64,000 bases of DNA from a virus. A model generated the notes under the pieces. The model searched no databases. It worked only from the letters and a program-made list of their open reading frames with translations, and was not told where the DNA came from. Positions 1 to 64,000 of this stretch are shown here, one piece after another; position 1 is the stretch's first letter, and the number at the start of each line of letters is the position of its first letter. The translations under genes and the position numbers were made by a program. The stretch is taken from positions 1 to 64,000 of the IMG/VR virus record IMGVR_UViG_3300033056_000001; one strand, written 5' to 3'.

Positions 1-1012
1 GAGTTATATTATCGGATTAGATCACGGAAACGGCTGGGTAAAAGCGAAAACTGCATCGAATGAATTAACGCTTCCATCTTATTATGCGAAATTAGAAACA
101 GTTAACGAAGGCTACGGAAACAATAAAATAGAAGTAAAAGAGTACGAAAGTAACATTTCGAAAGGTGAGAAATTCGTCTGGGGCGAAGAAATAAACCGCA
201 TCGACCACGTAGTTCCAACTTACGGCGCGCAAGATCGCTACAAACAAACGCCATACCGTCTGCTTACCGAATTCGCACTCGCAGAAGCAGCGTCTAAAGA
301 AGGTGACGCAATCTCGGACGTAATGGTCGTAACTGGCGTACCGTCAATCGAAAAAGGCACCGACTCAGAAAAAGACCTCATCAACGTAGTGCGCGGCGAC
401 CACCTCGTCAATATCAACGATAAAGGAATCATCTTACGCGTATCAGACGTTAAAGTCCTTCCGCAGCCGGTAGGCGTTGTAATGTCTGAATACCTTGACG
501 CAGACGGCTTCGTAGAGGACGAATCGTTTGAAACGGATAGCGTGGCCGTCATCGACATCGGAACGGGTACAACGGACATCGATCACGTTAAATCGCTCAA
601 ACGTCAGAAAGGCGACTCTGATTCGATTCTGCTCGGCATGAACGATGTTTACCGCCGTGTGGCCGACTGGATCAATTCGCAAAACCCATCGGCGCGCGCG
701 ACGGCCAGCAAAGTCGAAAGTCAGTTCGCGAATGACAGCTACGTAATCTCTAAACGCTCAGTAATCGAAATTGACGACATCAAAGAGCGTTCACTGGACG
801 AAGTGGCGGCCGAGTTAAAGACGGAAATCATCGGACGATGGAAAACGTGGGAACGATTCGACCGCATCTTACTAACTGGCGGCGGCGCGACGCAATTAGG
901 CCAACGCTTACAATCGCTTATTCCTGACGCTGAAATCGTTAAGAGCCCGCAGACGGCCAACGTAGAAGGTTTTTATCGTTATGGTAAATCGCTAGTAGGA
1001 GACGATGAGTAA
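1..1012 (+). CDS. Actin-like DNA segregation ATPase (ParM/Alp family), 5' end truncated by window edge
   Basis: The frame of ORF 323..1012 stays open back to nt 2 (SYIIGLDHGNGWVKAKT...). Actin-fold signatures present: GLDHGNG (phosphate 1), VIDIGTGTTD (phosphate 2), ILLTGGGA (adenosine). Stop overlaps the start of a small RHH gene (TAATG), as in parMR loci. Confidence 0.75.
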   Translation, partial: SYIIGLDHGNGWVKAKTASNELTLPSYYAKLETVNEGYGNNKIEVKEYESNISKGEKFVWGEEINRIDHVVPTYGAQDRYKQTPYRLLTEFALAEAASKEGDAISDVMVVTGVPSIEKGTDSEKDLINVVRGDHLVNINDKGIILRVSDVKVLPQPVGVVMSEYLDADGFVEDESFETDSVAVIDIGTGTTDIDHVKSLKRQKGDSDSILLGMNDVYRRVADWINSQNPSARATASKVESQFANDSYVISKRSVIEIDDIKERSLDEVAAELKTEIIGRWKTWERFDRILLTGGGATQLGQRLQSLIPDAEIVKSPQTANVEGFYRYGKSLVGDDE

Positions 1013-1284
1013 TGGCGCGTAAAATTTATCAACTTTCGTATGACGACGAATTGGACCACGATATTGTGGCGTTGTTTGAGAAACTCGATAAGCTGCCGAA
1101 GGATCGCAAGTCGGAGGCGGTGAGGTCGGCATTACGTATGTATGCGGATTATATCGGAGATTCGCCACGGTTATATTTTCCGCAGGTGAACTTCGGGCAG
1201 GCGCCGACGGCCGTTCCGGTTGAAGTGCCGAAGCCAGAAAAGAAAAAGAAGAAACGACCAGGATTTACGGGGGATGACTTTTAA
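1012..1284 (+). CDS. ParR-like ribbon-helix-helix centromere-binding adaptor (putative)
   Basis: 90 aa. RHH pattern: beta strand KIYQLSY, helices DHDIVALFEKL and RKSEAVRSALRMYA. Basic/acidic C-terminal tail KKKKKRPGFTGDDF. Translationally coupled to the ParM-like gene. Confidence 0.5.
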   Translation: MARKIYQLSYDDELDHDIVALFEKLDKLPKDRKSEAVRSALRMYADYIGDSPRLYFPQVNFGQAPTAVPVEVPKPEKKKKKRPGFTGDDF

Positions 1285-1298
1285 AGGAGGCGGAAAGT

Positions 1299-1436
1299 AT
1301 GTGGTTAATTATTACGCTATTAATAATCGCAGTTTTATTCGCAATCACACCGATGATTTTACTCCTAAGAAAACGAAAAGTGAATTACGCTAAAGAGTAC
1401 GAAAAGTATTTAGCGAATAACAATAAGGACTATTGA
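1299..1436 (+). CDS. Small membrane protein (45 aa), not in ORF track
   Basis: AAAGGAGG RBS 8 nt upstream of ATG. Sequence MWLIITLLIIAVLFAITPMILLLRKRKVNYAKEYEKYLANNNKDY, one TM helix. Followed by a terminator. Confidence 0.4.
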   Translation: MWLIITLLIIAVLFAITPMILLLRKRKVNYAKEYEKYLANNNKDY

Positions 1437-1442
1437 AGATAC

Positions 1443-1467
1443 GGCGGCCACTACGGTCGCTTTTTTA
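1443..1467 (+). terminator. Intrinsic terminator ending the par operon
   Basis: GCGGCC-actac-GGTCGC hairpin (one G-U pair) followed by TTTTTT. Confidence 0.55.
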
Positions 1468-1473
1468 TTTGCG

Positions 1474-1501
1474 CAAAAGAAAAGACGCCGTTTCAGGCGC
1501 C
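1474..1501 (-). terminator. Intrinsic terminator after the replication-relaxation gene
   Basis: Minus strand reads GGCGCC-tgaaac-GGCGTC followed by TTTTCTTTTG. Overlaps the stop codon. Confidence 0.55.
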
Positions 1502-2139
1502 TAACCAATTCGTATAGATATTCCATCGTTCTTAGGTTTCGGCTTCGTGGCCGCCAATAACTCGGATACGTCTTTCGTTTGAATAATACGCACGTACTCG
1601 CTGCTCACGTTGTATTTATGGTCGGCGATAATCCAAACGGCGGGGAATCGTTTTACCTTAAACGGTAAGCACTCACGCCATAGCTCCGACCGTGCGAACG
1701 CCTCATACCTGGCGATTTTCTGCTGCATGACTCTCGCCGTGTACCGCGTATTCTGAACCTCCGCGAAGAAGGCGGAACCGCGCCAGAACATGCAAATGTC
1801 CGGCCGTACATCTACGTTAGGGAATTGCGACTCAACAGCGAAATGTTTCAGATCCTTCTCGCCGTGGCCGCGCAGTTGAAGGTAGAAATCGGTGATTTTA
1901 AGGAAGTGGTCGACTTTTTGTCCGTTGGTTTTAATGCGGGCAGGTTTCGGAAAGTATACGTAAGGCTGACGGTTAGTATCAGCCTCGACATATCCACGAT
2001 CGCGCAGCCGTTTTAATACTTCGTTTGCATGGCGGATAGGATTCTTTGTGTCGGCGAAAAAGAGGGCCGCCAGCTGGTCACGCGTCATTGCGCGGAATTG
2101 TTGAAGCGTAGAGATTATTTCGAGGTCACGTTTTCTCAT
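1501..2139 (-). CDS. Replication-relaxation family protein (wHTH N-terminus)
   Basis: 212 aa. N-terminal pattern RDLEIISTLQQFRAMTRDQLAALFF...LKRLRDRGYV is typical of the Replic_Relax family. Overlaps the upstream FtsK-like gene by 4 nt, a pairing known from Gram-positive plasmids and phages. Confidence 0.65.
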   Translation of the reverse strand: MRKRDLEIISTLQQFRAMTRDQLAALFFADTKNPIRHANEVLKRLRDRGYVEADTNRQPYVYFPKPARIKTNGQKVDHFLKITDFYLQLRGHGEKDLKHFAVESQFPNVDVRPDICMFWRGSAFFAEVQNTRYTARVMQQKIARYEAFARSELWRECLPFKVKRFPAVWIIADHKYNVSSEYVRIIQTKDVSELLAATKPKPKNDGISIRIG

Positions 2140-3347
2140 TCGGATTCATCCTCCCAGTTTTCATCGTCTTGCCCGAAGATATTATCGGTGAGTTTTTTGA
2201 GGTCCGGCTCGGCGGCCGGCGGAGTTGGCGTCACATTCGTCGCAGACTTAGGCGCTCGCCAGTAAACGTTCAAAAGTTCCTTCGCCACGTCTAAATCGAG
2301 GTATGGCGCTTTGAGCTCGGTATTCTCGCCGCGGAAGTCGATTATAAACTGACCGCTGCTTTTAAGCTTCTCGGCGCCTGGCGTTTCGAGTATCTCGGCG
2401 CTAGTTTGATTGCGTACTTTAAAGCCCATACTTACGTCAAGACAATCACGAAGGGTAGTATCGATAACTTTATGCGAAGGGCGCTGCATCGATAGAATGG
2501 CGTAAATTCCAAGCGCACGGCCCATCGCTACCAATTCGATTAGCTTGGCGTTGAGCTCTTTGTCATCGCGCAGCATTACGTATTCGTCGATACATAATAG
2601 AATATAAGGTTTGCGGTGTTCTTTCGGCAGTTTGTCGATGTGGTCAATTCCGAAGACTTCGAGTAGTTTGGTGCGGTCGATCATTTCGGCGTGCAGTTCG
2701 TCAAGAATACGATTGGCGCCGCGTTTGTCGCTTTCGAGTGCTTTCGTATGTTGGATATTACGGAACAGGTGAAACTCCGACCGTTTACAGTCGATGAGGT
2801 ACAACGAAAGCTCTGACGGCTTTTTCGTAAGGATGAGCGTTGTTAGTATAATGCGTAGAATTGAAGACTTACCGGAGCCAGGGACGCCGCCGATGACCGC
2901 ATAAGGATTCGTAACCATATCATACGTAAACCATTTGCCGCGCTTATCTTTGCCGCAGACAATCGGCATTTTCTTGCCGTGGATCTCACGCATGAACTCG
3001 CCGTAGTTATAGTCGATTGTGTTTTGGTTGCTGCGGTTAAATATCGTAAGCGTGAAAACCTTATCTTCGCCGGATAACTCGATGTTGCCACCGAACGACT
3101 GCCGGAATACATACTCGCGCTTACGGAGCTCATCTGGCGAGTATCCCAACGGAATTGAAAACACATACGTAAATGTTTCCGATTCAGTGTCCGGCCGCAT
3201 ATCAAGTAGGCGAGGGTACTGGCGAATTTGCTTGCCGCCGCTGTTTTTATGTGCGATGTAAATGCCGCCTGCATTGAACGCCCGTTTTAACGCTCTACGC
3301 GCCATTCTCAGCGTTTTCTTTTGCGCTAGATAGTTACGTATACTCAT
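2136..3347 (-). CDS. FtsK/SpoIIIE-family DNA translocase ATPase
   Basis: Walker A GGVPGSGKSS, Walker B ILLCIDEY, and the FtsK-type motif GRALGIYAILSMQRPS. Start moved to Met58 of ORF 2136..3518: GGAGG lies 7 nt upstream and an ATGA overlap joins it to the preceding membrane-protein gene. Confidence 0.85.
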   Translation of the reverse strand: MSIRNYLAQKKTLRMARRALKRAFNAGGIYIAHKNSGGKQIRQYPRLLDMRPDTESETFTYVFSIPLGYSPDELRKREYVFRQSFGGNIELSGEDKVFTLTIFNRSNQNTIDYNYGEFMREIHGKKMPIVCGKDKRGKWFTYDMVTNPYAVIGGVPGSGKSSILRIILTTLILTKKPSELSLYLIDCKRSEFHLFRNIQHTKALESDKRGANRILDELHAEMIDRTKLLEVFGIDHIDKLPKEHRKPYILLCIDEYVMLRDDKELNAKLIELVAMGRALGIYAILSMQRPSHKVIDTTLRDCLDVSMGFKVRNQTSAEILETPGAEKLKSSGQFIIDFRGENTELKAPYLDLDVAKELLNVYWRAPKSATNVTPTPPAAEPDLKKLTDNIFGQDDENWEDESE

Positions 3348-3661
3348 CCGACTAACCTCCATAAGAACGCCATTAGAAAGCCGAAGAATGTGACGGGCAT
3401 TAAGACGTTGGCGGCACCGGCGATTAGTTCCGCAGCTTGGGACGCGCCTCGGCTGGCGAAGTGATTTTCGAGAAGGTTGGATATTATCGCGGTCAAGCCG
3501 ACTGCTGATACGAGCCAATATGCGCCTGCAATTTCGGGAGACATGCTGAAAAATCCCGCCCAGGTGAATCCGAAAGAGTAGATCGGTGCGCTAATTTTTC
3601 GTGGCTCATGACGATAGTTTCCAGACATAAAATCGTTGAATTTAATCGTTTGTACTTTCAT
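3344..3661 (-). CDS. Membrane protein, first gene of the FtsK-like operon
   Basis: 105 aa with 2-3 hydrophobic helices (FGFTWAGFFSM, AYWLVSAVGLTAIISNLL, VLMPVTFFGFLMAFLWRLV). GGAGGT RBS. Translationally coupled to the downstream gene. Confidence 0.5.
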   Translation of the reverse strand: MKVQTIKFNDFMSGNYRHEPRKISAPIYSFGFTWAGFFSMSPEIAGAYWLVSAVGLTAIISNLLENHFASRGASQAAELIAGAANVLMPVTFFGFLMAFLWRLVG

Positions 3662-3680
3662 TGTACATACCTCCTAATTA

Positions 3681-3758
3681 TACGTGTTGCTACACGGGTT
3701 TTAACACGGTTACTACTTACACGTGTTTACAAGCGTGAACAACAAGCGAGAGAAAGCT
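3681..3758. repeat. Iteron-like array of five (T)ACAC(G/A)(G/T)GTT repeats
   Basis: Copies: TACGTGTT 3681, TACACGGGTT 3691, TAACACGGTT 3702, TTACACGTGTT 3718, CTACACAGGTT 3748. They lie in the divergent intergenic region between the FtsK-like operon and an HTH gene. Confidence 0.6.
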
Positions 3759-3931
3759 ACACAGGTTCTGTTAGGAGTGAAATGAAGCGAGAGTGGAATG
3801 GAACGACGATAGCTTTAAAATACTATATGGGCGTAGGGTTGGTTATGTTTACGGATTTTTGTAATTTCGTGAATAATTTCCGTAAAGGTTGGCGAGGCTG
3901 TTGCTAACGAAATCAAACGGAGGTAATTCGA

Positions 3932-4156
3932 ATGTGGGGCTTGGGTAAGAAACGAACGAAGCTTGGTCGATTTTTAGATAAGAAAGGTCGTACGCAGAAT
4001 GAACTTGCGAAAGCTGCAGGCGTAAATAAGGAGACGATTAGCCGAGCGTGTAGCGATCCGAACTATTCGCCGACGGTCAAGACGTTGAGTAAAATTATGA
4101 AGGCGTTGCGGAAGTTAGATCCGAATGTAAAGGCGGAGGACTTTTTCGATTTATAG
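3932..4156 (+). CDS. XRE-family helix-turn-helix regulator
   Basis: 74 aa. HTH segment RTQNELAKAAGVNKETISRACS. GGAGGT RBS. Divergent from the FtsK-like operon across the iteron array. Confidence 0.7.
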   Translation: MWGLGKKRTKLGRFLDKKGRTQNELAKAAGVNKETISRACSDPNYSPTVKTLSKIMKALRKLDPNVKAEDFFDL

Positions 4157-4159
4157 ACA

Positions 4160-4205
4160 AAAAAAATAAGCGCCCACCCTACGAAAAGGTGAGCGCCGTT
4201 TTGTT
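4160..4205. terminator. Bidirectional intrinsic terminator
   Basis: A-tract, then GCGCCCACC-ctacgaaaa-GGTGAGCGC, then TTTTGTT. Serves the convergent genes 3932..4156 (+) and 4204..4620 (-). Confidence 0.6.
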
Positions 4206-4620
4206 AGCCGAGCATTGCCGAAATCATTACGTATTGTTTCTGGTCGCAGTGTATATGCAGTTTACACTCAACGCCATCTTCGCCGACCAGATAAACGAAG
4301 GCTTTCGATGTGTCTTTACGTCGTCCGCCGACCGCAGCGCCAGCGATTCCGCCTAACGGGCCTGCTACGATTGTCCCCGCGATTGCTCCGCCAGCCGCCT
4401 TGCCTGCGCTACGTTTACCGGATTTCGCCCATTCGATTCGCGCCAACTGCCAGCGCTTTTTATCTGCGAAAGGTAACTCCGTAATAACTTCGCCTGGCTT
4501 ATCGCCTTTGACTAGGTTTGCATTGCGAATCGGCACCGGAATGTGCTTATCTGTTAATACGTGTCCTCCGCTCAAAATATTAAGTTGAATGCGCTGACGA
4601 AACAATTCTTTCCAACCCAT
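4204..4620 (-). CDS. Glycine-zipper membrane protein, function unknown (stand-alone unit)
   Basis: 138 aa. Central AGKAAGGAIAGTIVAGPLGGIAGAAVGG glycine-zipper segment. GGAGGAG RBS. Own TATAAT box upstream and own terminator downstream. Confidence 0.5.
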   Translation of the reverse strand: MGWKELFRQRIQLNILSGGHVLTDKHIPVPIRNANLVKGDKPGEVITELPFADKKRWQLARIEWAKSGKRSAGKAAGGAIAGTIVAGPLGGIAGAAVGGRRKDTSKAFVYLVGEDGVECKLHIHCDQKQYVMISAMLG

Positions 4621-4656
4621 CGAAATCTCCTCCGTTTTAGTTTCCGTTATTTTCTA

Positions 4657-4686
4657 ATTATACTATATGTACGGACGAAAGCGAAA
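4657..4686 (-). promoter_or_regulatory. Putative sigma-A-type promoter for 4204..4620
   Basis: The minus strand has a perfect TATAAT (plus 4657..4662) with a weak -35 (TTCGCT) 17 nt upstream. Located after the holin stop. Confidence 0.35.
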
Positions 4687-4725
4687 AAAGATTCGCAATC
4701 GTCGAAAGTTTTTACTTCGTGCTGG

Positions 4726-4908
4726 CTAGTCGTCTCTGTTATTCGGATTATGTTTCGTGAAGAAGTACGCAGTAATCGCGGACAATGCGCCAATTAGCGC
4801 CGTGATAATCGTGTTGACTGTTTCGGAATCGTCGCGAAACATAAACATCGCCGTACCGAGTAAGCCGAGCACGCCGATAGATATTACGTATTCGAATCGG
4901 AATTTCAT
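4726..4908 (-). CDS. Holin-like small membrane protein
   Basis: 60 aa, two TM helices and a charged C-terminus (KHNPNNRDD). Start overlaps the endolysin stop (TAATG). Confidence 0.55.
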   Translation of the reverse strand: MKFRFEYVISIGVLGLLGTAMFMFRDDSETVNTIITALIGALSAITAYFFTKHNPNNRDD

Positions 4909-6116
4909 TACTTCGCCTCCTTATAGTACCAGCCTTTCTCGTTAAGGAATCGCTTAACTTTAACGAGGTCCAGTCCTCTAGCCGTAATTGTAGCGCTCGG
5001 GTTTCCGCCTTTCGCAAGGTTTAAAGCGCCGTCTAGTCCGATCGACTTCAAGAACGTACGGAACTCCGCTTCCATTGCCGGATTCAAGCCGCCTGTCTTT
5101 AACGTAACTGCGATTGGCTCAACGTCTTTCATTTGGACAAATCCGCCAGGAACCGCCCATGCTGCAGTCGTATATCCGTAAACGCTAAACACCGTGCCTG
5201 CTTTTAACGTTTTAGTCTTTTCGCTAATGTCAGCGTTTTTATATACGCCAGTAGCTACTTTCGCTTTAACTTGAACAGCGTATTTATCGCCAAGAGATGT
5301 TACTTTCGGCATTTCCTTCGCTGGCTCAACTTTCGCAGGTTCAGCCGGTTTAGTTTCGACTGCTTTCGCTTTTGCGTCAATTAAGTCGGCTAGTTTTGCG
5401 ATTGTTTTAGGTCCAGCGATTCCGTCTGCGTCTAAACCGTTCGCTTTTTGGAACGCCTTGATTGCCGCGACTGTTTTAGTGCCAACCACTCCGTCTACAG
5501 TTCCGAGGTCAAAACCAAGCGAAGTTAGTTTCGCCTGTACATCGATTACCGCTTCACCTTTCGAACCTAATTTAACGATAGTGCTTCCGGCTTCAACTTC
5601 GACTTTGATTTCGGAAACGTTTCCGCCTTTAACTTTTGCGATAACTTCCGCTTTGAATTGCGCCCAGCCTGCCGGATCCACAACGTAGAAATGCGGGCAG
5701 TCTTTGCCCGTTACGTCGTAGTGACGAATCATATGCGTAGACGGATCGATTCCGTGACGTTTACACACATCGGCTGCTAGTTCGACCGTGTTAGCGCGCA
5801 TTTTCGTGAAGACGCCGTCGCTGTTTACGCACATTTCGATTCCGATTGAGTTTGCGTTACGGCAGCTTGGATGAACGTATTTCTTAGCGCCAACGTGGTA
5901 GCCGAGTTCATTTTCGGGTAGTGCGCGTACGATTTGCGTACAGTCTACGAGATAGTGAGCGCTAGCAGAACGGTCGGTACTGTTGAAGTAGTTACGGTTA
6001 GCCATTGCGTTTGCGCCTTTACCTTCGTTTGCTGTCCAGTGAATTACGAGATACTTCGGATCTATTTTACGTCCTGGTCGATTATGACCGCTGATTAATT
6101 TTTCAGTGATATTCAT
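4908..6116 (-). CDS. Endolysin: N-acetylmuramoyl-L-alanine amidase (Amidase_2/PGRP) with PG_binding_1 and a C-terminal wall-binding region
   Basis: N-terminus VIHWTANEGKGANA...SAHYLVD...GIEMC...HYDVTGKDCP carries the zinc amidase motifs. The middle GSKGEAVIDVQAKLTSLGFDLGTVDGVVGTKTVAAIKAFQKANGLDADGIAGPKT is a peptidoglycan-binding domain. Confidence 0.9.
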   Translation of the reverse strand: MNITEKLISGHNRPGRKIDPKYLVIHWTANEGKGANAMANRNYFNSTDRSASAHYLVDCTQIVRALPENELGYHVGAKKYVHPSCRNANSIGIEMCVNSDGVFTKMRANTVELAADVCKRHGIDPSTHMIRHYDVTGKDCPHFYVVDPAGWAQFKAEVIAKVKGGNVSEIKVEVEAGSTIVKLGSKGEAVIDVQAKLTSLGFDLGTVDGVVGTKTVAAIKAFQKANGLDADGIAGPKTIAKLADLIDAKAKAVETKPAEPAKVEPAKEMPKVTSLGDKYAVQVKAKVATGVYKNADISEKTKTLKAGTVFSVYGYTTAAWAVPGGFVQMKDVEPIAVTLKTGGLNPAMEAEFRTFLKSIGLDGALNLAKGGNPSATITARGLDLVKVKRFLNEKGWYYKEAK

Positions 6117-6212
6117 TTCATCGCTTCCCTTCGTTCAATTTTAATCGTATAATAAGCGTAAGTGTCGGCGCCGCAATACTTTGGAGAGAGAGGCGCGGCA
6201 GTCCGACCGCAA

Positions 6213-6620: not shown

Positions 6621-7937
6621 ATGAAAATATTAGTTATATTTATCTTGTACTTTTTGATTTTTGCATTTTGGAACATCTTTTTTGCCAAAAGAGATAAATT
6701 TAAAAATTTGTATTTAGTATTTTTCTTGTTCTTATTTAGTTTCTACCTATCTACTCCGTATTATCAAATAAATCTAGATGGTTCAAGGGAAAGCGCATCG
6801 TTACATACTGTTTTCGTAGCCTTGATTGTTTGCTTGTTTTTTGTCGCAAATAAAAGGGTTCTTAAACCAGGAAAAGAACTGATATTATTTATCCCTATAT
6901 TCTTCCAAGCTTTAATTACTGTGTTATACTTTAAGTTTAGTAATATTGCGGATGTCTTTGGTATTTTAAATGCTTATATAAGTATTTATCTGATTATCCT
7001 TATATATCGGAGTGTACCCAATATAGATATTAACAAATTTTTATACAGTATAAACTATCTAGCTTTGGTAAACGGAATTTTAGGTATGGCTCAATACATA
7101 ACGGGCAAAAGTTTATTGATCGGAAGTTTCAATAGTTCAATTCTTTATACAGAAGGTATGGTAGATATAAAACGTGTCATAGGATTAGCAGGAGCTAATA
7201 ATGCTGCCGGTACTTTTAGTGCTATACTTTTCGGCGTTGTCTTGTATAATTTACTAAAGAAGCGAGATATTCTAAGCTTAATAACCTTAATTATAACGAC
7301 TGTATTTGCTGTTTTAACTTTCACTAGGGTTGGCTATGTCGCTATTTTTGCAGAAGTTTTAATTTTTTGGTTTTTATACAAACCGAAAACAAAGAGAACT
7401 CAGTTTACAAAAATAATTTCGTTTTGTTTTGGCCTTCCTATTATAGTAATCGTCACTAGTAGTTTCGTTTCAGGCCTAATTAATAAATTATTTACGGAAC
7501 GTGGTGATACGTCCTCAGAAAGATTTAGGCAATTCCAAAGGGCATATGATTATGTTATTTCTAACAATTGGTTTTCAGGAATAGGAATAGGTCAATATAA
7601 ACCATATCTACTCAATAACTACCGAATAGCTGATTTACCAATACACTCTCAATACTTAAATGTTTTAGCAGAACAAGGAGTACTTATCTTAATTGTTTTT
7701 GTCCTCTTTAATTTCACGATAATTTACAAGATACTTAGAAACAAACACATAGATAAAGATTTAAAAGTACTAACAGTGGCGATTTTTTCGGCAAACTTTA
7801 TGTGTTCTAACTTTAACCCCAACCAATTTTATTACATGAATAACGTGCTTTACTACATTATTATGCTTGGTTTATATTTTTACGCGAAAAGATATAAAGT
7901 AGCGCCTTTGGATAAAGAGTTAAAAATAGCAGCATAG
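6621..7937 (+). CDS. O-antigen ligase/polymerase-like (Wzy_C family) polytopic membrane protein
   Basis: 438 aa with about 10-12 TM helices. Wzy_C-like motif region: FTRVGYVAIF ... PIHSQYLNVLAEQGVLILIV. Very AT-rich (roughly 25-30% GC by eye) compared with its neighbours. Opposite strand, with its own promoter and terminator. Confidence 0.75.
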   Translation: MKILVIFILYFLIFAFWNIFFAKRDKFKNLYLVFFLFLFSFYLSTPYYQINLDGSRESASLHTVFVALIVCLFFVANKRVLKPGKELILFIPIFFQALITVLYFKFSNIADVFGILNAYISIYLIILIYRSVPNIDINKFLYSINYLALVNGILGMAQYITGKSLLIGSFNSSILYTEGMVDIKRVIGLAGANNAAGTFSAILFGVVLYNLLKKRDILSLITLIITTVFAVLTFTRVGYVAIFAEVLIFWFLYKPKTKRTQFTKIISFCFGLPIIVIVTSSFVSGLINKLFTERGDTSSERFRQFQRAYDYVISNNWFSGIGIGQYKPYLLNNYRIADLPIHSQYLNVLAEQGVLILIVFVLFNFTIIYKILRNKHIDKDLKVLTVAIFSANFMCSNFNPNQFYYMNNVLYYIIMLGLYFYAKRYKVAPLDKELKIAA

Positions 7938-7967: not shown

Positions 7968-9506
7968 TCAGTTACCGGTTATCATTCGGTCATCAACAAA
8001 TATACTACCGACTTGAAGCCAACCGCGAACAACATATTTACTTCCAGCCGTTCCAACCTCTGAAAGAGTTCCTACATTTTCAACGTAAGTGTCGTACCCT
8101 GTTATAGATGATGGTTTTGCGTCGTTCATATGTCTTGTAGTCTTTTTAGCGAAAAAGTGGATATTCCCAACGTATCCTGTAGTGTTGACATCTTTAATGA
8201 TATTACCTTGATTAGAGTTTGACGTAGAATAAACTCCGAACTTGTTATTAACCGATGTTTTAGTCGTATCAATCGATTCTATAATAATATTTTTAAGGAG
8301 GATGTTTGTTGGTTGGGAAATACCATTTGAATCTAATAAAATACCATGCCCTTTAGTTGCTGTAGACGTATCATTTTTACCGTTTGTACCCTTAACTGTA
8401 TTGTCTGTAATAACTAACCTATCCGAACCAGCCAGAACCACAATACCGTTATTTGAAGCGTTTAATATTTTATTACTGCTTGCAACGGTTCCCTTTGTAT
8501 TATACAGAGTTAATGCACCCATACTTCCGTAAGAACTACTTTCGTCTACTATATTTCCGCTAACGATATTATCATCTGACTGCCAAATTTCAATTTGATG
8601 GAATCGATTATTCTTAGACGTGTTTCCGATAATCGTATTTTGATAAGCTACTTTACCGCTGCCCCCGAATGATGTAATCCCTTCTTGTCCGTTACCTTCA
8701 CAGTAATTTCCGATAGCTTTACAATATCGAGCGCCTTTGCCTAACGTCGAGTTGTAACCGAATAAGATACCCTGACCGCCGTTATTCTTAACTCTGGGAT
8801 TGTTTAATACGAATACGCGAGTTCCGCTTAATACGTTTATGTGTGCGCAGTCGTTTTGTTCTACAGCGTAACCTCCAAACTCGGCAGGGTTATCGAAGAT
8901 GCTGTTAGTAATCAATATATTATCGCTATCGTTGTCGACAATAATACTGCTTTTTGTGATGTTGTTGAACTCACAGTTAGATACGTAGGAATTTTTCGCA
9001 CCGTAATAGTAAACACCAACAACGCCAATGTTTGTGAATTTACAACGCTCAAACGAGACTCTTTCTTTACCGTCCGCTTGAACTACGAAATTGTATCCAT
9101 CAAAATTAATTCCGATAAATAAGTTTCTATTCATAGCGTCCATGAATTTAGTCGTACCGCTGCCTGCTATCTTCGATTGGTTTCCGACAAACGTAAGATC
9201 ATCATAAGAAGTTATTTTCGTTTTTATATTGTATGTTTTATTATTTTTTAGAGTAACAATACGCTTACCATCGGTATTTGCTTTGTTTACAGCACGTTGA
9301 AATCTAGCCGAATCATCAACCTCGGGAGCAACGATAGGGAATGATTCCAAATGTACGGAACTCTCAGCCAAAACATCAATTTTATCTGCATTCTCTTTCG
9401 CCTTTGTGTCGAGTTTCGTAAAGTTATTATTTAACTCCGTCCGTTTGAAATAATCCGTCTCCGCCCATATATCCATTCCTAGATTCGGTGTTTTATTCGA
9501 TGCCAT
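7968..9506 (-). CDS. Tailspike / second receptor-binding protein with right-handed parallel beta-helix (pectate-lyase-like depolymerase fold)
   Basis: 512 aa. The N-terminus MASNKTPNLGMDIWAETDYFKRTELNNNFTKLD is homologous to the N-terminus of the adjacent fibre. Repeated PbH1-like units are present (ILITNSIFDN, VKNNGGQGILFG, IGNYCEGNGQEGITSFG, IIGNTSKNNRFHQIEIW, VSGNIVDES, ILNASNNGIVVLAG, ITDNTVKG). GC is lower than in the tail genes. Confidence 0.75.
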   Translation of the reverse strand: MASNKTPNLGMDIWAETDYFKRTELNNNFTKLDTKAKENADKIDVLAESSVHLESFPIVAPEVDDSARFQRAVNKANTDGKRIVTLKNNKTYNIKTKITSYDDLTFVGNQSKIAGSGTTKFMDAMNRNLFIGINFDGYNFVVQADGKERVSFERCKFTNIGVVGVYYYGAKNSYVSNCEFNNITKSSIIVDNDSDNILITNSIFDNPAEFGGYAVEQNDCAHINVLSGTRVFVLNNPRVKNNGGQGILFGYNSTLGKGARYCKAIGNYCEGNGQEGITSFGGSGKVAYQNTIIGNTSKNNRFHQIEIWQSDDNIVSGNIVDESSSYGSMGALTLYNTKGTVASSNKILNASNNGIVVLAGSDRLVITDNTVKGTNGKNDTSTATKGHGILLDSNGISQPTNILLKNIIIESIDTTKTSVNNKFGVYSTSNSNQGNIIKDVNTTGYVGNIHFFAKKTTRHMNDAKPSSITGYDTYVENVGTLSEVGTAGSKYVVRGWLQVGSIFVDDRMITGN

Positions 9507-29660: not shown

Positions 29661-30203
29661 ATGAACATCGTCCAACCAATCCGTAAGAAAACCGACATTA
29701 ATAAAATGAAAGCTGCGCTAGGTAATCCGCGCGACAAGTTACTGTTTATTTTCGGCATAAATTCAGCGTTAAGGATCTCCGACATACTAAAGCTAAAGGT
29801 TGGCGATGTTCGCGGTAAAGATGCGCTGAAACTGCGCGAAACTAAAACGAAAAAAGCGAAAGACTTCCTGCTGAATGATTCGATTAAGAAGGCGCTGAAG
29901 GAAATGTTACCTACCGACGCTAAAGACGGCGACTGGCTGTTTCCGTCACGTAAAGGCGACAAGGCTATTACGCGAGTTCAGGCGTATCGAGTATTAAACG
30001 CCGCCGCTGAACGTGCTGGCTTGGCGATTGAAATCGGAACACATACGTTAAGGAAGACATTCGCTTACCATGCGTATAAAGCAGGCGTTGATCTTACGTT
30101 GCTAATGTCCGTATTAAACCATTCAAGCCAACGCGAAACGCTTAAATATATCGGAATCGTCCAAGACGACGTTAACAGCGTATTTGCTGGCGTTAATTTA
30201 TAG
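29661..30203 (+). CDS. Minimal (catalytic-domain-only, 180 aa) tyrosine recombinase
   Basis: Catalytic residues are recognisable: ALRISD (Arg), HTLRKTF (His-x-x-Arg), LNHSS (His), ETLKYIG (Tyr). Start moved to Met21 of ORF 29601 (AAAGGGG RBS). About the size of FimB/FimE/RecV-type recombinases. Confidence 0.85.
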   Translation: MNIVQPIRKKTDINKMKAALGNPRDKLLFIFGINSALRISDILKLKVGDVRGKDALKLRETKTKKAKDFLLNDSIKKALKEMLPTDAKDGDWLFPSRKGDKAITRVQAYRVLNAAAERAGLAIEIGTHTLRKTFAYHAYKAGVDLTLLMSVLNHSSQRETLKYIGIVQDDVNSVFAGVNL

Positions 30204-32784: not shown

Positions 32785-33372
32785 CTAGAGTTTCTTCCTC
32801 AAATCATGTATTTTAGCCCTAATTCTCGGCATTTCGACCTCAATTTCCGCCAGTCTTTCGCCGTCCCTTAACGCCTGCCCTAGCGATAATTCATTAAAAT
32901 AGTCGTCGTCCAGCAATTCGTGGTCCGGATTCTCTTCGAATTCCTCTCCGTCATTCATGTACGACCATTCAATCGACTGCTTTTCTTCGGATAGTTGGTA
33001 CAGCGTATACTCTAACCGGTCGATTTCCTCCTCAATACCAGCGCGAACTTCCGGAACCTCATCGTAAACTTTGGCGACATTATATTTCGGCTGCAATTCG
33101 TTAATGAAGAACGTCTCGTATACTTCCCGTTCGTAATCATCCGGAATATCGTATAGCTGGATTGTTTCGATTTGACCAACGAATAACTTACTGCGCCCGT
33201 CTCCTCGGCGATGATCCGCCAGTCTTTTACGGAACTGCATCGTTTTACCGACGTATAAAACAAGGCCGAAGCGATCTTTGAATACGTAGACCCCTCCGAC
33301 TGACTCTCGCAAGCTGTTAATCTCTTTTAGCGTAATTGTGGCGTATACTTCCGGCGCTGTTATTTTAATCAA
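32785..33372 (-). CDS. GIY-YIG nuclease (homing-endonuclease-like)
   Basis: GGVYVFKDRFGLVLYVGKTMQFRKRLADHRRG ... YETFFINELQPKYN carries the GIY..YVG..R..H..E..N motifs. 195 aa. Confidence 0.8.
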   Translation of the reverse strand: MIKITAPEVYATITLKEINSLRESVGGVYVFKDRFGLVLYVGKTMQFRKRLADHRRGDGRSKLFVGQIETIQLYDIPDDYEREVYETFFINELQPKYNVAKVYDEVPEVRAGIEEEIDRLEYTLYQLSEEKQSIEWSYMNDGEEFEENPDHELLDDDYFNELSLGQALRDGERLAEIEVEMPRIRAKIHDLRKKL

Positions 33373-40674: not shown

Positions 40675-41712
40675 TTATAAATCGTCGAACCCGTTCGCAT
40701 CTGACGCCTTCGTATACTGGCGTGATTTCTGCTCGAAGAAGTCCGTCTTGCCTAAGTCGACCTCCTGGTAAGCGATGATCCAACGCATCGGATTCTCGTT
40801 GTAGCCTTCGAATGGTTTATCGAATCCTAGCTGTTTACAGCGCTTGTTTGCCATAAATTTGATGTATGCGTCTAGTTCCGCTTTGCTTACCCCGTCGAAT
40901 TTATCGCCAACAACACCATTCCCCCAAGCAATTTCTAATTCGGCAGCACGAACGAATGTATCTCGAACGAACTCGGCTAGTTCTGGCGTGTTGTGTTCTG
41001 GATTTTCGTCTAGTACGGCTTGAAATATCTTGATAAATAAATCAACGTGTAATTCCTCATCACGATTAATAAAATTTATCATTGTTGACGTCGAAACCAT
41101 TTTTCGATTTCGTGCTAAGTTGTAGAAGAAAGCAAATCCGCTGTAGAAGAATAATCCTTCGAGAATAACGTCATAAACAATAGATTTTAAGAAATTAGCG
41201 ACTGTCGGATCCTCAGCAAAATCTTTATAGCCATCCGTTACGAATTCATTACGTTCAAGCAATAACGGTTCAGTACGCCAGTAATCAAATACCTCGTCTT
41301 GTTTCGCTTTATTAACAACGCTTGAAAGTACGTACGAATAAGAATGGTTATGTACGACCTCCTGCTGTGCTAAGATAATCATTAAAGCGTTAATTGAAGA
41401 GTCGGTGATGTAGTCTGCTGCTTTCATTGCGTAATCTGATTGAATTGAATCTAATAATGCTAAAAGTCCGATAATCTTTAAGAATGATTCTTGCTCATCC
41501 TTTGTTAGTTGCGGGAACTGCTTGATATCTTGCCCCATGTTAACTTCGAAAGGTACCCAAAAATTAGCTAGCATTCTCTTATATTTAGGGAATGCGAACG
41601 GGAATCTTACGTCATCCCAGTTTAGGATATTCGAGGACTGTCCATTGACAATCCCCGTTGATCTATTCGGTGCGTTTACGTCCACTAATTTACGTTTTTC
41701 CATATTAAGCAA
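40675..41712 (-). CDS. nrdF: Ribonucleotide reductase beta (R2) subunit
   Basis: Di-iron ligand helices present (EVVHNHSYSY, ILEGLFFYSGF, RDEELH). 345 aa. Confidence 0.9.
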   Translation of the reverse strand: MLNMEKRKLVDVNAPNRSTGIVNGQSSNILNWDDVRFPFAFPKYKRMLANFWVPFEVNMGQDIKQFPQLTKDEQESFLKIIGLLALLDSIQSDYAMKAADYITDSSINALMIILAQQEVVHNHSYSYVLSSVVNKAKQDEVFDYWRTEPLLLERNEFVTDGYKDFAEDPTVANFLKSIVYDVILEGLFFYSGFAFFYNLARNRKMVSTSTMINFINRDEELHVDLFIKIFQAVLDENPEHNTPELAEFVRDTFVRAAELEIAWGNGVVGDKFDGVSKAELDAYIKFMANKRCKQLGFDKPFEGYNENPMRWIIAYQEVDLGKTDFFEQKSRQYTKASDANGFDDL

Positions 41713-42247
41713 CCTCCCAATTTTTAGATAGAATAAAAGTATGGTTTAATTTTTTATAATAAAAACCTGATGGATTTTTCCTAATGCTTTTAATTAAATA
41801 GTCGTAGTTTACATTTAAGTCTTCAGCGCACTCTAATACAGAAGAAAAGAAGCGAACATTGCCCGCAGAATCTTTCAATAATACTGGACACTTACTACGA
41901 GGTATTTTGGGTACTTTTTTATTAGTCGTAGCAATCAGACCTGTATCAACAGCATGTTTTATATTATTAGAAGGACTGACCCACTCTAAGTTATTCGGAT
42001 GATTGTTAGTTTTATCGCCGTCGATGTGATTAACTTGTGTTTTTACTTTGGGATTATCGTTATCAAGCCAGGTAAGCGCCACTACCCGATGGGCGCTATA
42101 CCATTTCTTGTTAAGACAATACTTAAAGTAACCGTTAGTTCCTGGAAGTTCTTTCAAAACCCTCTTAGTAATTGAATTTCTAATCTTACCTTCGAAATTA
42201 ACCTCGTAATCTAAATCCAACGGAAAAGGTAACCATTCGAACAGCAT
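41705..42247 (-). CDS. HNH homing endonuclease (NUMOD4 + HNH_3-like) between nrdE and nrdF
   Basis: WLPFP..DYEVNFEGKIRN and NHIDGDKTNNHPNNLEWVSPSNNIKHA. Clearly more AT-rich than the flanking RNR genes. Confidence 0.85.
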   Translation of the reverse strand: MLFEWLPFPLDLDYEVNFEGKIRNSITKRVLKELPGTNGYFKYCLNKKWYSAHRVVALTWLDNDNPKVKTQVNHIDGDKTNNHPNNLEWVSPSNNIKHAVDTGLIATTNKKVPKIPRSKCPVLLKDSAGNVRFFSSVLECAEDLNVNYDYLIKSIRKNPSGFYYKKLNHTFILSKNWEVA

Positions 42248-44757: not shown

Positions 44758-45299
44758 TTCGAAATCAACTCCTCGTTAATTAAGTACGCTAATCCCAAAG
44801 CCGCTGCGTCCGATTCGTCATCGCAAGCAAACTCGCCTTTGTAACCAGTAATGGTTCGAACCGAAGCTTCAATTTCTTCTTTCGTTGCAACTCCCGAACC
44901 AACTACGATATTCTTCATATTCGACTGTGGAATGCCGAGGTGTATTTTCCGCTTGCCTTTACGGTCGACTGTAACGAATTGCGAAAACTCTAGTCCGAGA
45001 AACTCAACGGCCCTCGCACACGCTGCCCAAGCGCTAAGAACCGGATAATTCTGTTTCGATGATTGACCGTGAAAGTCTTCGCGAGTTACGATATCGATGC
45101 CTTTTCCGATGTGATTCGATATAAAAGAAACGGCCCACGCATAGACTAATTCGTGCCGTATTGCGTGGCTTAGTTTTGTATTTGGTTTAACGTGACTCAC
45201 TGCGATGATTTTCGGTTTGTTGTCCCGAACCTCAATCAAACATAGGCCGGGAGAGCTGAGACTTGTATCAAATGAGAGTATCCTAGTAATCGTGGGCAT
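44754..45299 (-). CDS. RuvC-like Holliday junction resolvase
   Basis: Catalytic acidic residues in RuvC order: ILSFDTS (Asp), TREDFHG (Glu), DDESDAAALGLAYL (Asp/Asp). Confidence 0.65.
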   Translation of the reverse strand: MPTITRILSFDTSLSSPGLCLIEVRDNKPKIIAVSHVKPNTKLSHAIRHELVYAWAVSFISNHIGKGIDIVTREDFHGQSSKQNYPVLSAWAACARAVEFLGLEFSQFVTVDRKGKRKIHLGIPQSNMKNIVVGSGVATKEEIEASVRTITGYKGEFACDDESDAAALGLAYLINEELISK

Positions 45300-54581: not shown

Positions 54582-54683
54582 TCAGCCTCCGCGTGGTACA
54601 TGAGCAGAAGCATCACCGCCGAACAGGATAAGGGCTCCTACAATGATCACCGCAGCAACTACAAATGGTAAATACTTTTTCAT
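54582..54683 (-). CDS. aimP: AimP-like secreted signalling pre-pro-peptide (33 aa), not in ORF track
   Basis: MKKYLPFVVAAVIIVGALILFGGDASAHVPRGG. Basic N-terminus, hydrophobic signal segment, C-terminal ...HVPRGG. The GAGGAGG RBS overlaps the stop of the AimR-like gene. Confidence 0.7.
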   Translation of the reverse strand: MKKYLPFVVAAVIIVGALILFGGDASAHVPRGG

Positions 54684-54697
54684 AAGAAATTTCCTCC

Positions 54698-55885
54698 TCA
54701 TTTAGCGAATTGCCCGTATACCGCCTCTGCCACAGATTTTAGAGTTTCGGATTTTCTTAGCTGTTCTAACGGTAGTTGCGCAAAGAATAAATCACCGACT
54801 TTCAAGAATTGGCTTAACGATTTAAACAGCATATCACTGTCGTTAGTGGCTAACCCTTTGTAATAGAAGTAGTACATCGCTTCTTCCGCTTCACTAACTT
54901 CCTTTTCGATAATCTCTAGGGCTTTACCTTTATCGCCCCATTTTGCCTCATAATGCGCAATTACTACCGGTACGCCTTCCGTAACCTTTACTCCATGGTG
55001 CGCGTCTAAAAACGGGAGGAACCATCGTTCTAACTCGTCAGCAAAACCTTCGTAATTAGCTTCGCGGTAAACATCGATCGCCTGCTTCGTATTTAGCACG
55101 CTCAGCTCGTAGCTTTCGAATGTAAACGACGTTCCTAATAGATAATACGAATTCGCTTTAAATATCGCACAAATATCCTGTGAAATATTTTTTGTTGCGT
55201 GCTCTCTTGCCTTTTCTACGTCTGCCAATACGTATAAAAAGCGTTTCCCTAATAGATCATTGAGCCTTACCTCAAAAGACATTCTGAAAAAGCAATCTTT
55301 CAAATTATACACGTCTTGTTCAATTTCATCACATATCCTAGACATAGTATGTAGATAAGCTGCTGATGTTGAAAGTATTCTATAACATACGTTAGCCTCT
55401 ACTAAGTTTAATAATAGTTTCATCTCACTGTCGTTTGTAGACACTTTTCTGACTTTATCTAACATTTCTTTATTTTTTATTTCTCCAGCTTCGTAGCTGG
55501 ATATCATTCCGTAAAGAGCACCCCAACGTTTTAAATTTTTATTTGTTGAAGTATCAACCTTTACTTTAATATAGTCATTTAAGACATCTAAATTTTTGTT
55601 TAGAGATAAGTACTCCATCGCAGCTTTTATATTTTCAGGTAACTCTAATTTGTATGCCCAATCTATAAGTTGAACATCGTCCTTAAATAAACTTCTTGAT
55701 ATTTTATAGAGTTTACAAAAACCAGGCTCCACTCCTTCATATAGGTATCTTCTCATAGTTCTAACATCTACTTCTGCAATTCTAGCCAAATCCTTAACCG
55801 GTATATTTTCTTCCAAACAATCCAACATTGTTTCAAGTGCGTTCCCGATCAATCGCAACACCCTTTCGAAAGTGCCTGCCAGCAT
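54698..55885 (-). CDS. aimR: AimR-like arbitrium receptor / transcription regulator (N-terminal HTH plus TPR-like helical repeats, RRNPP-type)
   Basis: 395 aa. HTH IPVKDLARIAEVDVRTMRRYL. All-helical body. The C-terminus YYFYYKGL...FLKVGDLFFAQLPLEQLRK resembles SPbeta AimR (from memory). The true start may be an internal TTG near 55852, preceded by GAAAGGG. Confidence 0.8.
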   Translation of the reverse strand: MLAGTFERVLRLIGNALETMLDCLEENIPVKDLARIAEVDVRTMRRYLYEGVEPGFCKLYKISRSLFKDDVQLIDWAYKLELPENIKAAMEYLSLNKNLDVLNDYIKVKVDTSTNKNLKRWGALYGMISSYEAGEIKNKEMLDKVRKVSTNDSEMKLLLNLVEANVCYRILSTSAAYLHTMSRICDEIEQDVYNLKDCFFRMSFEVRLNDLLGKRFLYVLADVEKAREHATKNISQDICAIFKANSYYLLGTSFTFESYELSVLNTKQAIDVYREANYEGFADELERWFLPFLDAHHGVKVTEGVPVVIAHYEAKWGDKGKALEIIEKEVSEAEEAMYYFYYKGLATNDSDMLFKSLSQFLKVGDLFFAQLPLEQLRKSETLKSVAEAVYGQFAK

Positions 55886-55895
55886 TATATTTTTA

Positions 55896-55924
55896 TTGAC
55901 TATGTAAATCTAAGATGTTATGTT
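55896..55924 (+). promoter_or_regulatory. Putative promoter for the plus-strand HTH gene pair
   Basis: TTGACT, 17 nt spacer, TATGTT. Back-to-back with the aimR promoter. Confidence 0.45.
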
Positions 55925-55925
55925 T

Positions 55926-55953
55926 ATTATACACAAAATGTCTGACGAAGCAA
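55926..55953 (-). promoter_or_regulatory. Putative aimR promoter
   Basis: Minus strand reads TTGCTT, 16 nt spacer, TATAAT. Confidence 0.4.
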
Positions 55954-55986
55954 ACATTTTTTTGGATAAAAAAGGAGATAATTATT

Positions 55987-56193
55987 ATGATAAGTTATGA
56001 GCCATTTAAAGAAACACTCAAAGAGAAGAACATAAAAATAAGCCACCTTCGTACTGATAAAGGAGGATTTCTTACTACTGATGTTATTAGACGTATTAAT
56101 AAGGGAATGAACATTGATATCGTTAATATTGAGAAGATTTGTAGAGAGTTAGATGTACCAATAGAAAAAGTTATAAAATTCGTTAAAGAATAA
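55987..56193 (+). CDS. XRE-family HTH regulator (68 aa)
   Basis: Start at MISYEPFK (AAAGGAG RBS). HTH IKISHLRTDKGGFLTTDVIRRINKG. AT-rich. Confidence 0.65.
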   Translation: MISYEPFKETLKEKNIKISHLRTDKGGFLTTDVIRRINKGMNIDIVNIEKICRELDVPIEKVIKFVKE

Positions 56194-56251
56194 TTGGACA
56201 CATTTTCCTGTTTTGTTGTATAGTTAGTCTGTCACCTTTGGATGGAGGTGT

Positions 56252-56476
56252 TTGATGTACGAGGTAGGAAAGTGCAGACTCAAGATACTTCTGAAAGAAC
56301 GTAGGATCACGCAAAACGAATTCGCTAGTATGATGGGTATGTCGAAGCAGCAAATCAACGATTACATAACGGGCCACACAGCCACAATGTCGTTAAAAAC
56401 TGCGAAAAACATCGCACATAAGCTCGACTGCTCCATTGATGATCTATACGAATGGACACGTTCAAAGACGAAGTAA
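56252..56476 (+). CDS. XRE/Cro-CI-family HTH regulator (74 aa)
   Basis: ITQNEFASMMGMSKQQINDYITG is a classic HTH_3. GGAGGTG RBS. Confidence 0.75.
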   Translation: MMYEVGKCRLKILLKERRITQNEFASMMGMSKQQINDYITGHTATMSLKTAKNIAHKLDCSIDDLYEWTRSKTK

Positions 56477-63815: not shown

Positions 63816-63937
63816 ATAATCGCTCCCTTTCGGTATCTTTTATATTTAATTACTTTGTCGACTATAAATATACTCAAGTAACTTGTTACGAAGAGTCGTA
63901 CGTTAGTACGAAAGCACTTATGTCGCTATCTCTTTTT

Positions 63938-63977
63938 ATTCTTTATAGAATCATTCTTTATATAATTATTCTTTATA
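63938..63977. repeat. Three direct ATTCTTTATA repeats with 15-bp periodicity
   Basis: Copies at 63938, 63953 and 63968, upstream of the early operon. The nearby palindrome AAGTAACTT occurs at about 63876 and again (AAGTAACTT) at about 63980. Confidence 0.6.
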
Positions 63978-64000
63978 CAAGTAACTTTTTTCCGTTAGCT

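Follow-up and report, generated by a model that had tools for sequence, protein, structure and literature searches.

What a plasmid-type partition locus does on the genome of a tailed phage is the question raised by the first 64,000 nucleotides (hereafter the window) of IMG/VR virus record IMGVR_UViG_3300033056_000001, which open within a gene for a ParM-type actin-like ATPase followed by a gene for a small protein resembling the adaptor ParR. We put at roughly 80% the probability that this locus is a type II (actin-like) parC-parM-parR cassette, closest to that of plasmid pSK41, and that its carrier, a temperate Priestia megaterium myovirus of 66.3 kb, exists in lysogens as a free circular plasmid rather than by integration. 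An extrachromosomal phage-plasmid had been proposed in a sequence-only reading of the window, and the proposal is supported here by a circular map, stand-alone contigs, the lysis-lysogeny regulator AimR and the lack of a full-length integrase.

The partition cassette and its candidate centromere

The sequence to the left of the window was taken from L006, a 66,298-bp Logan contig (SRR10694896) retrieved by exact-protein look-up with the 90-amino acid (aa) product of the second gene. A window position equals the L006 position minus 8989, and features outside the window are given in L006 coordinates. The cassette and the features that accompany it are as follows.

L006 8861-8896 and 8932-8967, upstream of parM: candidate parC repeats, 83% identical, with starts 71 bp apart
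1..1012 (+): parM, 337 aa, complete in the window but for the A and T of the ATG
1012-1284 (+): parR-like adaptor gene, 90 aa, with an N-terminal putative ribbon-helix-helix (RHH) domain, a variable linker and a basic, then acidic/aromatic tail
1299-1436 (+): 45-aa open reading frame (ORF) with a single transmembrane segment, GGAGG upstream, in the parMR transcription unit
~1443-1471 (+): intrinsic terminator of the parMR unit from the terminator scan (L006 10432-10450), a hairpin with a T-run

In the ORF translation, the parM frame runs from window base 2 through 336 codons to a TAA at 1010-1012. The ATG is located at L006 8988-8990, with window base 1 as its G, and the full gene covers L006 8988-10001; the 5' truncation described in the sequence-only reading is therefore real but extends to only 2 nt. 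The translation shows the phosphate-1 (GLDHGNG), phosphate-2 (VIDIGTGTTD) and adenosine (LLTGGGA) motifs. Profile searches returned Pfam ALP_N (5e-21) and MreB-like_C (2e-14), PHROG 691 'partition protein' (2e-57) and the NCBIfam model 'plasmid segregation protein ParM' PRK13917 (286 bits, 3e-85), whose equivalog cut-off of 417 was not reached, and the best solved structure was pSK41 ParM (3JS6; 4.7e-32, 27% identity over 328 aligned positions). The earlier assignment of an actin-fold ATPase with ParM-type nucleotide-binding motifs is thus borne out by Pfam, PHROG, NCBIfam and 3JS6 alike. An Hsp70, sugar-kinase or MreB identity was rejected because none of these families competes in the profile searches, and the Hsp70 or sugar-kinase outcome that would have spoken against a segregation protein was not found. 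Judged by these profiles and motifs, the ATPase of window 1-1012 is a partition-type ParM.

The nearest annotated relatives of this ParM, at 40-48% identity, are ParM genes of 40-70-kb Bacillales plasmids. The ParM-like proteins of the virulent Bacillus phages SPO1, CampHawk and Goe2 are 27% identical, and no record in the phage collection has a ParM more than 29% identical to the query. ParM peptide patterns found no relative in the GTDB species genomes, and window 1-6200 had no megablast match in the collections of phages and plasmids. With ParM at 286 of 417 bits and the adaptor at 19 of 140 bits in NCBIfam, the pair represents a separate lineage whose nearest characterised relative is pSK41.

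The start of the adaptor gene overlaps the parM stop by one base (TAATG), and the tail of its product carries a basic KKKKKRP patch followed by an acidic stretch (KKKKKRPGFTGDDF), as had been described for a 90-aa gene coupled to parM. The adaptor has no match in Pfam, nor does tblastn find one in 50,697 phage records; it matches PHROG 38823 (9e-18) and gives a weak match to NCBIfam ParR PRK13916 (8e-4; 19 bits, with the cut-off at 140). When 1.84 billion representative proteins were searched with a profile, 33 family members were recovered, in whose alignment the N-terminal 50 residues are conserved (MAxKxYQLPYDxExDxDIxxWLxxLPRxRKAExVRxAIRxY), followed by a variable linker, a basic KKRP patch and a short tail. 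The top PDB match of the single sequence was the RHH domain of pSK41 ParR bound to its centromere (2Q2K, 0.048), and a 32-sequence profile again ranked 2Q2K first (8e-4), followed by CopG-family RHH regulators (1e-3). An AlphaFold2 monomer model based on 32 sequences has helices at residues 16-26 and 30-48 and no strand, with a predicted local distance difference test (pLDDT) score of 69. A model without the strand is expected because the RHH sheet forms only in the dimer, and a Foldseek search with it against the PDB returned nothing below E=5, a monomer model of a dimeric RHH protein being uninformative in such a search.

A homologous ORF of 74-91 aa directly follows the ParM homologue in all ten relatives examined. 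On Brevibacillus and Aneurinibacillus plasmids, the ORFs after the ParM homologues are likewise members of the adaptor family (28-43% identity), indicating that ParM and the adaptor travel as a pair. These comparisons support the assignment of the 90-aa protein as a ParR-like adaptor. Of the earlier description as a ParR-like RHH protein, the likeness to ParR stands, with 2Q2K as the top match though only at E ~1e-3, and the RHH domain is putative.

Between parM and a divergent gene for a 292-aa protein lies a 466-bp region, in which two 36-nt AT-rich direct repeats stand directly 5' of parM. Both repeats are located within blocks that hardly vary among six relatives, one of which has a ParM of only 72% identity, and the second repeat spans a conserved extended -10 element (TGCTATTAT; TGnTAnnAT in all relatives, read from the alignment). 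Distant ParM loci also have two repeat blocks within ~130 bp of the start codon, with different sequences. An 11-bp periodicity exceeded shuffled controls in three of these distant loci; in the upstream region of this phage, 11-bp iteron periodicity was not above the shuffled controls. The layout matches that of a parC that doubles as an operator, and the repeats are thus candidates for the centromere. The centromere had been placed upstream of parM and outside the window, and extension to the left in L006 yielded both the parM start and the candidate repeats at 8861-8967.

The 45-aa ORF has only a weak Pfam match to DUF3139 (0.008), and its slot in relatives is occupied by ORFs of 106 aa, 83 plus 98 aa or 78 aa, or is empty. 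A role as a third partition component was rejected because the ORF is not conserved among relatives, and by this comparison it is a variable passenger outside the partition system. The tiny membrane ORF and the terminator that had been noted after parR are both present, but the ORF does not hold up as part of the system.

Circular map, host and gene set of the carrier phage

L006 is 100% identical to the window and bridges window position 64000 to position 1 through 2,268 bases, giving a circular map of 66,268 bp. The first base of L006 corresponds to window 17472 and the last, by arithmetic, to window 17443; the contig exceeds the circle by 30, the excess expected of a k=31 circular overlap, an overlap likewise derived from arithmetic. 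A second contig with the same proteins measures 66,409 bp, the circle plus 141, an excess that would fit a k=141 assembler. Whole-element contigs were found at 64,435, 64,521, 65,222, 65,478, 66,273, 66,298, 66,409/66,410, 67,395, 68,117 and 68,564 bp. Near-identical stand-alone copies occur in at least nine assemblies, including named Priestia megaterium isolates, and the proteins are at least 90% identical across many samples. The 68,117-bp copy is CP180721.1, a separate replicon of the finished genome GCA_047782835.1. No copy of the element was found on a contig longer than 200 kb, and none of the copies found has a chromosomal context. In the NCBI and UniRef clusters of ParR, TerL, AimR and the capsid protein, members are named Priestia megaterium. 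Assembly topology therefore agrees with the proposed separate replicon, and a linear, N15-like plasmid was rejected given the circular map and the lack of a protelomerase.

Two loci of the carrier phage bear directly on its lifestyle.

29601/29661-30203 (+): tyrosine recombinase consisting of the catalytic domain only, 180-200 aa, between terS and terL (Pfam Phage_integrase, 1e-24)
54582..55885 (-): arbitrium module, with aimR at 54698-55885 and a candidate aimP at 54582-54701

The recombinase translation shows the R, HxxR, H and Y catalytic positions. Its matches to the NCBIfam XerA, XerD and invertase-like models are all below the cut-offs, and it is 72% identical to a gene at the same position in the Bacillus cereus plasmid NZ_CP133652. 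No second recombinase and no full-length integrase was found among the ORFs scanned, in line with the sequence-only reading, which had listed a minimal tyrosine recombinase at 29661..30203 and no full-length integrase. From its domain content and position, the recombinase is a candidate multimer resolvase. Given that the element has a ParM/ParR cassette and no integrase, it most likely persists as a free circular plasmid.

One could argue instead that the element normally integrates by means of this small recombinase, that the circular contigs are induced or packaged DNA, and that ParMR is dispensable or a relic. The catalytic residues are intact, assemblies alone cannot separate episomes from excised or packaged DNA, and one relative with a 94%-identical ParM resides on a 142,471-bp Joint Genome Institute (JGI) metagenome contig (Ga0671523_0000084; L008, L010). 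The length of this contig, however, is close to 2 x 71 kb, and its ParM at ~25 kb and TerL at ~62.5 kb are spaced as in two tandem ~71-kb units, which fits a two-unit concatemer; a metagenome scan with ParM returned only five contigs, all of 17 kb or less, and is silent on the concatemer. Moreover, the recombinase is without the N-terminal DNA-binding domains that phage integrases have and is conserved between terS and terL, also on the B. cereus plasmid; no contig above 200 kb carries the element, which one finished genome lists as a 68-kb replicon of its own. Both ParM and ParR are intact, and their conservation extends to relatives of only 49% identity. Taken together, we regard habitual integration as highly improbable.

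AimR was identified by Pfam (1.6e-54) and NCBIfam lysogeny_AimR (189 bits against a cut-off of 70). The candidate aimP encodes 39 aa, overlaps the aimR stop and has a hydrophobic, signal-peptide-like N-terminus and the C-terminal sequence HVPRGG. The phage is temperate, as judged from the presence of this arbitrium lysis-lysogeny system of temperate Bacillus phages. The lysis-lysogeny region, 54582-56476, comprises aimR, the candidate aimP and divergent small helix-turn-helix (HTH) genes at 55915-56193 and 56252-56476 (+).

The carrier is a myovirus with nearly all genes on the - strand. The virion and lysis genes encode an endolysin (amidase), tail spike, fibres, baseplate, tape measure, sheath, capsid, scaffold, portal, TerL and TerS, and an XhlA-like holin-associated gene is also present. 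PolA, a helicase loader, DnaB and a primase make up the replication genes, and other genes encode sigma factors, a methyltransferase, thymidylate synthase, ribonucleotide reductase and a RuvC-like resolvase. The virion, packaging and lysis set looks complete and uninterrupted. The + strand carries only parM, parR, the 45-aa ORF, three small HTH regulators, a Wzy_C-like membrane protein and the recombinase, a layout that follows the pattern described for phage B83 (PMC6669507). The opposition in strand between the cassette and the lytic genes, pointed out before, is thus confirmed.

This gene set also bears on the idea that the element is a plasmid with a defective, non-inducible prophage as cargo, for which ParMR would be an ordinary plasmid partition system. 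Its relatives are deposited as 'plasmids', and the element is known here from sequence. Nevertheless, the set of phage genes, with terS and the endolysin among them, looks complete and unbroken, the proteins are at least 90% identical across many samples, and the collinear phages 268TH007 and phi18-2 are isolated phages, which makes a defective prophage unlikely in our view.

Several side observations concern the carrier genome. The Wzy_C (O-antigen-ligase-like) membrane protein gene at 6621-7937 (+) forms an island of 33% GC, compared with ~46% elsewhere, and, on the lysogeny strand, separates the lysis genes from those for tail fibres; it is probably a lysogenic-conversion moron. Its neighbour, a beta-helix protein gene at 7968-9506, also has lower-GC sequence. 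The modules for replication and nucleotide metabolism are interrupted by four free-standing nuclease genes with the appearance of homing endonucleases (32785-33372, 41705-42247, 45283-46203 and 58988-59686; one GIY-YIG, two HNH and one endonuclease VII-like), and one of the HNH genes separates the genes for the two ribonucleotide reductase subunits.

Alternative maintenance modules and the region around the cassette

The backbone of this phage is collinear with those of 268TH007 and phi18-2, which infect B. subtilis, and of Sporosarcina phage Lietuvens. For the 68-kb Bacillus phage 268TH007, the identities are 46% for FtsK, 37% for the replication-relaxation protein, 55% for the loader, 45% for the primase, 36% for PolA and 57% for TerL, and AimR is in the same place; thymidylate synthase (60%) is a further protein shared with this group of phages. 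In this phage, however, a 351-aa tyrosine integrase (L019 5945-7000) is found beside the homologue of the 292-aa gene, and the region has no ParM/ParR. 268TH007 is thus an integrative version of the design in which the phage described here has ParM/ParR instead. The circular B. cereus plasmid NZ_CP133652 shares TerL (66%), the small recombinase, FtsK and the replication-relaxation protein, and has a ParA-superfamily PrgP pair near the parMR site (L003 22797-23988). A plasmid of Brevibacillus sp. HD3.3A encodes ParM (47%), ParR, FtsK, the replication-relaxation protein and TerL (52%). More distant ParM relatives (49-54%) show the same layout of a rep-like gene, parMR and FtsK on 60-64-kb contigs with phage lysis and tail genes, and one of them has AimR. 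As a side observation, on the Bacillus infantis contig JAZICA010000015.1, a 316-aa protein (L016 3356-4306) is encoded directly upstream of a 54%-identical parM on the same strand. Phage integrases match it weakly over their N-terminal (SAM-like) domains, and it is probably a tyrosine recombinase and possibly a dedicated multimer resolvase.

The occurrence of an integrase, ParA or ParM as alternatives on one backbone argues that ParMR serves prophage maintenance rather than lytic growth. The maintenance module itself looks exchangeable among these collinear relatives. A cassette that acts mainly during lytic growth, positioning or moving replicating phage DNA and unneeded for prophage inheritance, would have a precedent: AlpC/AlpA of the Corynebacterium prophage CGP3 moves replicating phage DNA. 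ParM-like genes are found in the large virulent phages named above, and the present phage has its own replication set of PolA, DnaB, primase, loader and ribonucleotide reductase. Against this, the cassette has its own promoter and terminator and stands opposite all lytic operons, together with the presumably lysogeny-expressed HTH regulators, the Wzy-like moron and the recombinase. Its closest ParM relatives are plasmid-borne rather than phage-borne, and a collinear integrative phage does without the cassette and has an integrase instead. We therefore judge a mainly lytic function very unlikely and retain prophage partition as the preferred reading of the locus.

On its right, the cassette meets a convergent operon.

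1502-1483 (-): intrinsic terminator of the FtsK/Replic_Relax operon from the terminator scan (L006 10491-10472)
1501..3661 (-): convergent operon for a 105-aa protein, an FtsK/SpoIIIE-type translocase and a replication-relaxation protein
1501-2139 (-): replication-relaxation family protein (Pfam Replic_Relax, 3e-13)
2136-3347 as called (-): FtsK/SpoIIIE-type translocase (Pfam FtsK_SpoIIIE, 7e-23)

The terminators of the parMR and FtsK/Replic_Relax units stand back-to-back within 1443..1502. The 105-aa/FtsK/Replic_Relax trio is also found in the relatives L008, L009, L011, L012 and L017, in 268TH007 and in the B. cereus B6 plasmid. It adjoins the maintenance slot in every relative, whether integrative (268TH007), ParA-type (B. 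cereus B6) or ParM-type. One idea is that the operon might move the prophage into the forespore.

To the left of parM, the features lie mostly beyond the right edge of the window on the circular map.

63936..64000: start of the maintenance/early region, which runs off the right edge and reaches window base 1 after 2,268 bases
beyond the right edge, in L006: gene for a 132-aa winged-helix protein (replication initiator O-like)
beyond the right edge, in L006: gene for a 74-aa protein
L006 7643-8521 (-): 292-aa HTH/replication-initiator-like gene
L006 8651-8770 (+): structured small RNA of ~120 nt, with three helices and an end formed by a hairpin and T-run

Three tandem 15-nt repeats (TTATTCTTTATAnAA) occupy window 63936-63980, in a region that continues to L006 6764. 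They are followed by overlapping palindromes built on TTCCGTTAGCTAAG, which are intergenic and lie beside the 132-aa winged-helix gene; the repeats and palindromes could serve as iterons of an origin or as operators.

The 292-aa protein matches PHROG 1835 'HTH DNA binding protein' at 2e-38. Its homologues in large Bacillus phages are annotated 'DNA replication protein' or 'RepA-like replication initiator', and others are encoded on small P. megaterium plasmids. Between this gene and parM there is a perfect sigma-A promoter, TTGCAA-17-TATAAT (L006 8616-8644), with invariant hexamers and a variable spacer. This promoter and the small RNA together cover L006 8616-8770, equal to circular-map 65895-66049 and outside the window. 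The RNA has a folding z-score of -3.4 and 32 pairs, with 88% of cells paired compared with 37-56% when the pairing partner is slid; five pairs have compensatory changes, and several invariant G-U pairs fit the + strand only. Rfam gave only a chance-level match to the small RNA and the maintenance region. A covariance model, built from five training sequences and of short reach, found the RNA only in the close P. megaterium clade and not in distant relatives or 268TH007.

A conserved leftward promoter, TTGTAA-17-TACAAT (L006 8817-8789, -), predicts for the 292-aa gene (L006 8522-8817 region, -) a 260-nt leader fully antisense to the small RNA. Folding of the leader is strong (z = -5.9), and it has a terminator-like 16-bp hairpin with U5 just 5' of the ribosome-binding site; a stretch of 11 nt that lies upstream, inside the target of the small RNA, is perfectly complementary to the 5' arm of this hairpin. 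In plasmids pT181 and pIP501, the rep genes are under transcription attenuation by antisense RNA, and the layout seen here resembles attenuation of this type. We tentatively suggest, at less than even odds, that the maintenance module is swappable at one site within a single collinear family of arbitrium Bacillaceae phages, the ParM version bringing in a clade-specific, structured ~120-nt antisense RNA that would attenuate the initiator-like gene and so set copy number or immunity.

Proposed mechanism and comparison with known systems

In the mechanism that we propose, ParR dimers would bind the two 36-nt AT-rich blocks upstream of parM through their N-terminal RHH domains, as inferred from the family. 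Because one of the blocks spans the extended -10 element and the transcription start of the parMR promoter, repression of the operon would fall to the same ParR-parC complex. This complex would use the basic/acidic tail at the C-terminus of ParR to capture and stabilise the ends of ATP-ParM filaments, and filaments growing between paired copies would, ahead of cell division, drive sister prophage plasmids into opposite halves of the cell. Dimers would be resolved by the small tyrosine recombinase, the initiator-like gene and the antisense small RNA may set the level of replication or of early genes in the plasmid state, and arbitrium would choose between lysis and episomal lysogeny.

Several points weigh against a plasmid prophage segregated in this way. 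ParM stays below the NCBIfam equivalog cut-off, and virulent SPO1-like phages encode ParM-like proteins, so that such a gene alone is no proof of a plasmid lifestyle. The similarity of the adaptor to solved ParR/RHH proteins is marginal, its monomer model has two helices only and was empty in Foldseek, and the parC candidate is only a two-copy AT-rich repeat without significant 11-bp periodicity in this phage. The relative on Ga0671523_0000084 is part of a larger contig, and a circularly permuted virion genome from headful packaging would also give a circular assembly, a concern for runs SRR10694896 and SRR8814843. The evidence as a whole consists of sequences and assemblies.

If the plasmid reading holds, a widespread and so far undescribed clade of P. 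megaterium phage-plasmids, with at least nine assemblies and several metagenomes, joins the short list of Bacillus plasmid prophages; neither a phage-plasmid nor an arbitrium phage of P. megaterium turned up in full-text literature searches. Existing principles are unchanged by the finding. Stand-alone contigs of the element are easily annotated as plain plasmids, as has happened with related Bacillus elements (PMC6669507). The integrase, ParA and ParM versions of one backbone provide a natural comparison of the cost and gain of episomal and integrative lysogeny in a spore-former. The ParMR cassette, the candidate centromere and the initiator gene with its predicted antisense-RNA control form a compact test system, and possibly a stabilising module for P. 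megaterium vectors.

The plasmid-prophage lifestyle with ParM, an RHH adaptor, arbitrium and an Xer-like recombinase is already published for Bacillus phages, and what is new here is the lineage and the host. B83, BMBtp14, pBTHD521-2, IEBH and Bp8p-C are, like this phage, temperate tailed phages that exist as circular plasmids (PMC6669507, PMC11526630). Plasmid prophages encoding a protein like ParM together with an RHH/HTH adaptor have been confirmed experimentally for IEBH, Bp8p-C and B83, and in B83 arbitrium is accompanied by two recombinases of the Xer-like kind and a RepA-like initiator (PMC6669507, PMC11526630). In RBClin15, an FtsK/replication-relaxation operon adjoins rep and par (PMC11526630). 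The plasmid prophages of the B. cereus group share with the phage described here a ParM-like ATPase followed by a small RHH adaptor, which in their case has no detectable ParR homology, par genes opposite the lytic strand, an Xer-like small recombinase by the terminase, arbitrium and a RepA-like initiator. Unlike them, the present phage has Priestia megaterium as its host, is a myovirus rather than a siphovirus, and has a larger genome with its own PolA, ribonucleotide reductase and thymidylate synthase, a different ParM lineage and, in the space from the initiator-like gene to parM, a small structured RNA of antisense orientation. Bp8p-C is itself a myovirus, of roughly 150 kb.

The ParMRC system of the Staphylococcus aureus plasmid pSK41 has the same order of parC, parM and parR, with centromere repeats upstream that lie over the promoter. 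The N-terminal domain of pSK41 ParR is an RHH domain, its flexible C-terminal tail binds ParM, and pSK41 has a divergent rep gene under antisense RNA control. The two systems differ in that the ParM proteins are only 27% identical and that two 36-nt blocks are present here, whereas pSK41 has tandem 20-bp repeats; pSK41 is a conjugative resistance plasmid, and the carrier here is a phage. As a plasmid prophage, phage P1 of Escherichia coli combines a partition system with a plasmid-type initiator, a tyrosine recombinase that resolves dimers and immunity control by antisense RNA. With ParA/ParB/parS, RepA and Cre/lox, P1 follows the same logic as the P. megaterium phage, but its ParA is Walker-type rather than actin-like, the proteins are unrelated and the host is Gram-negative.

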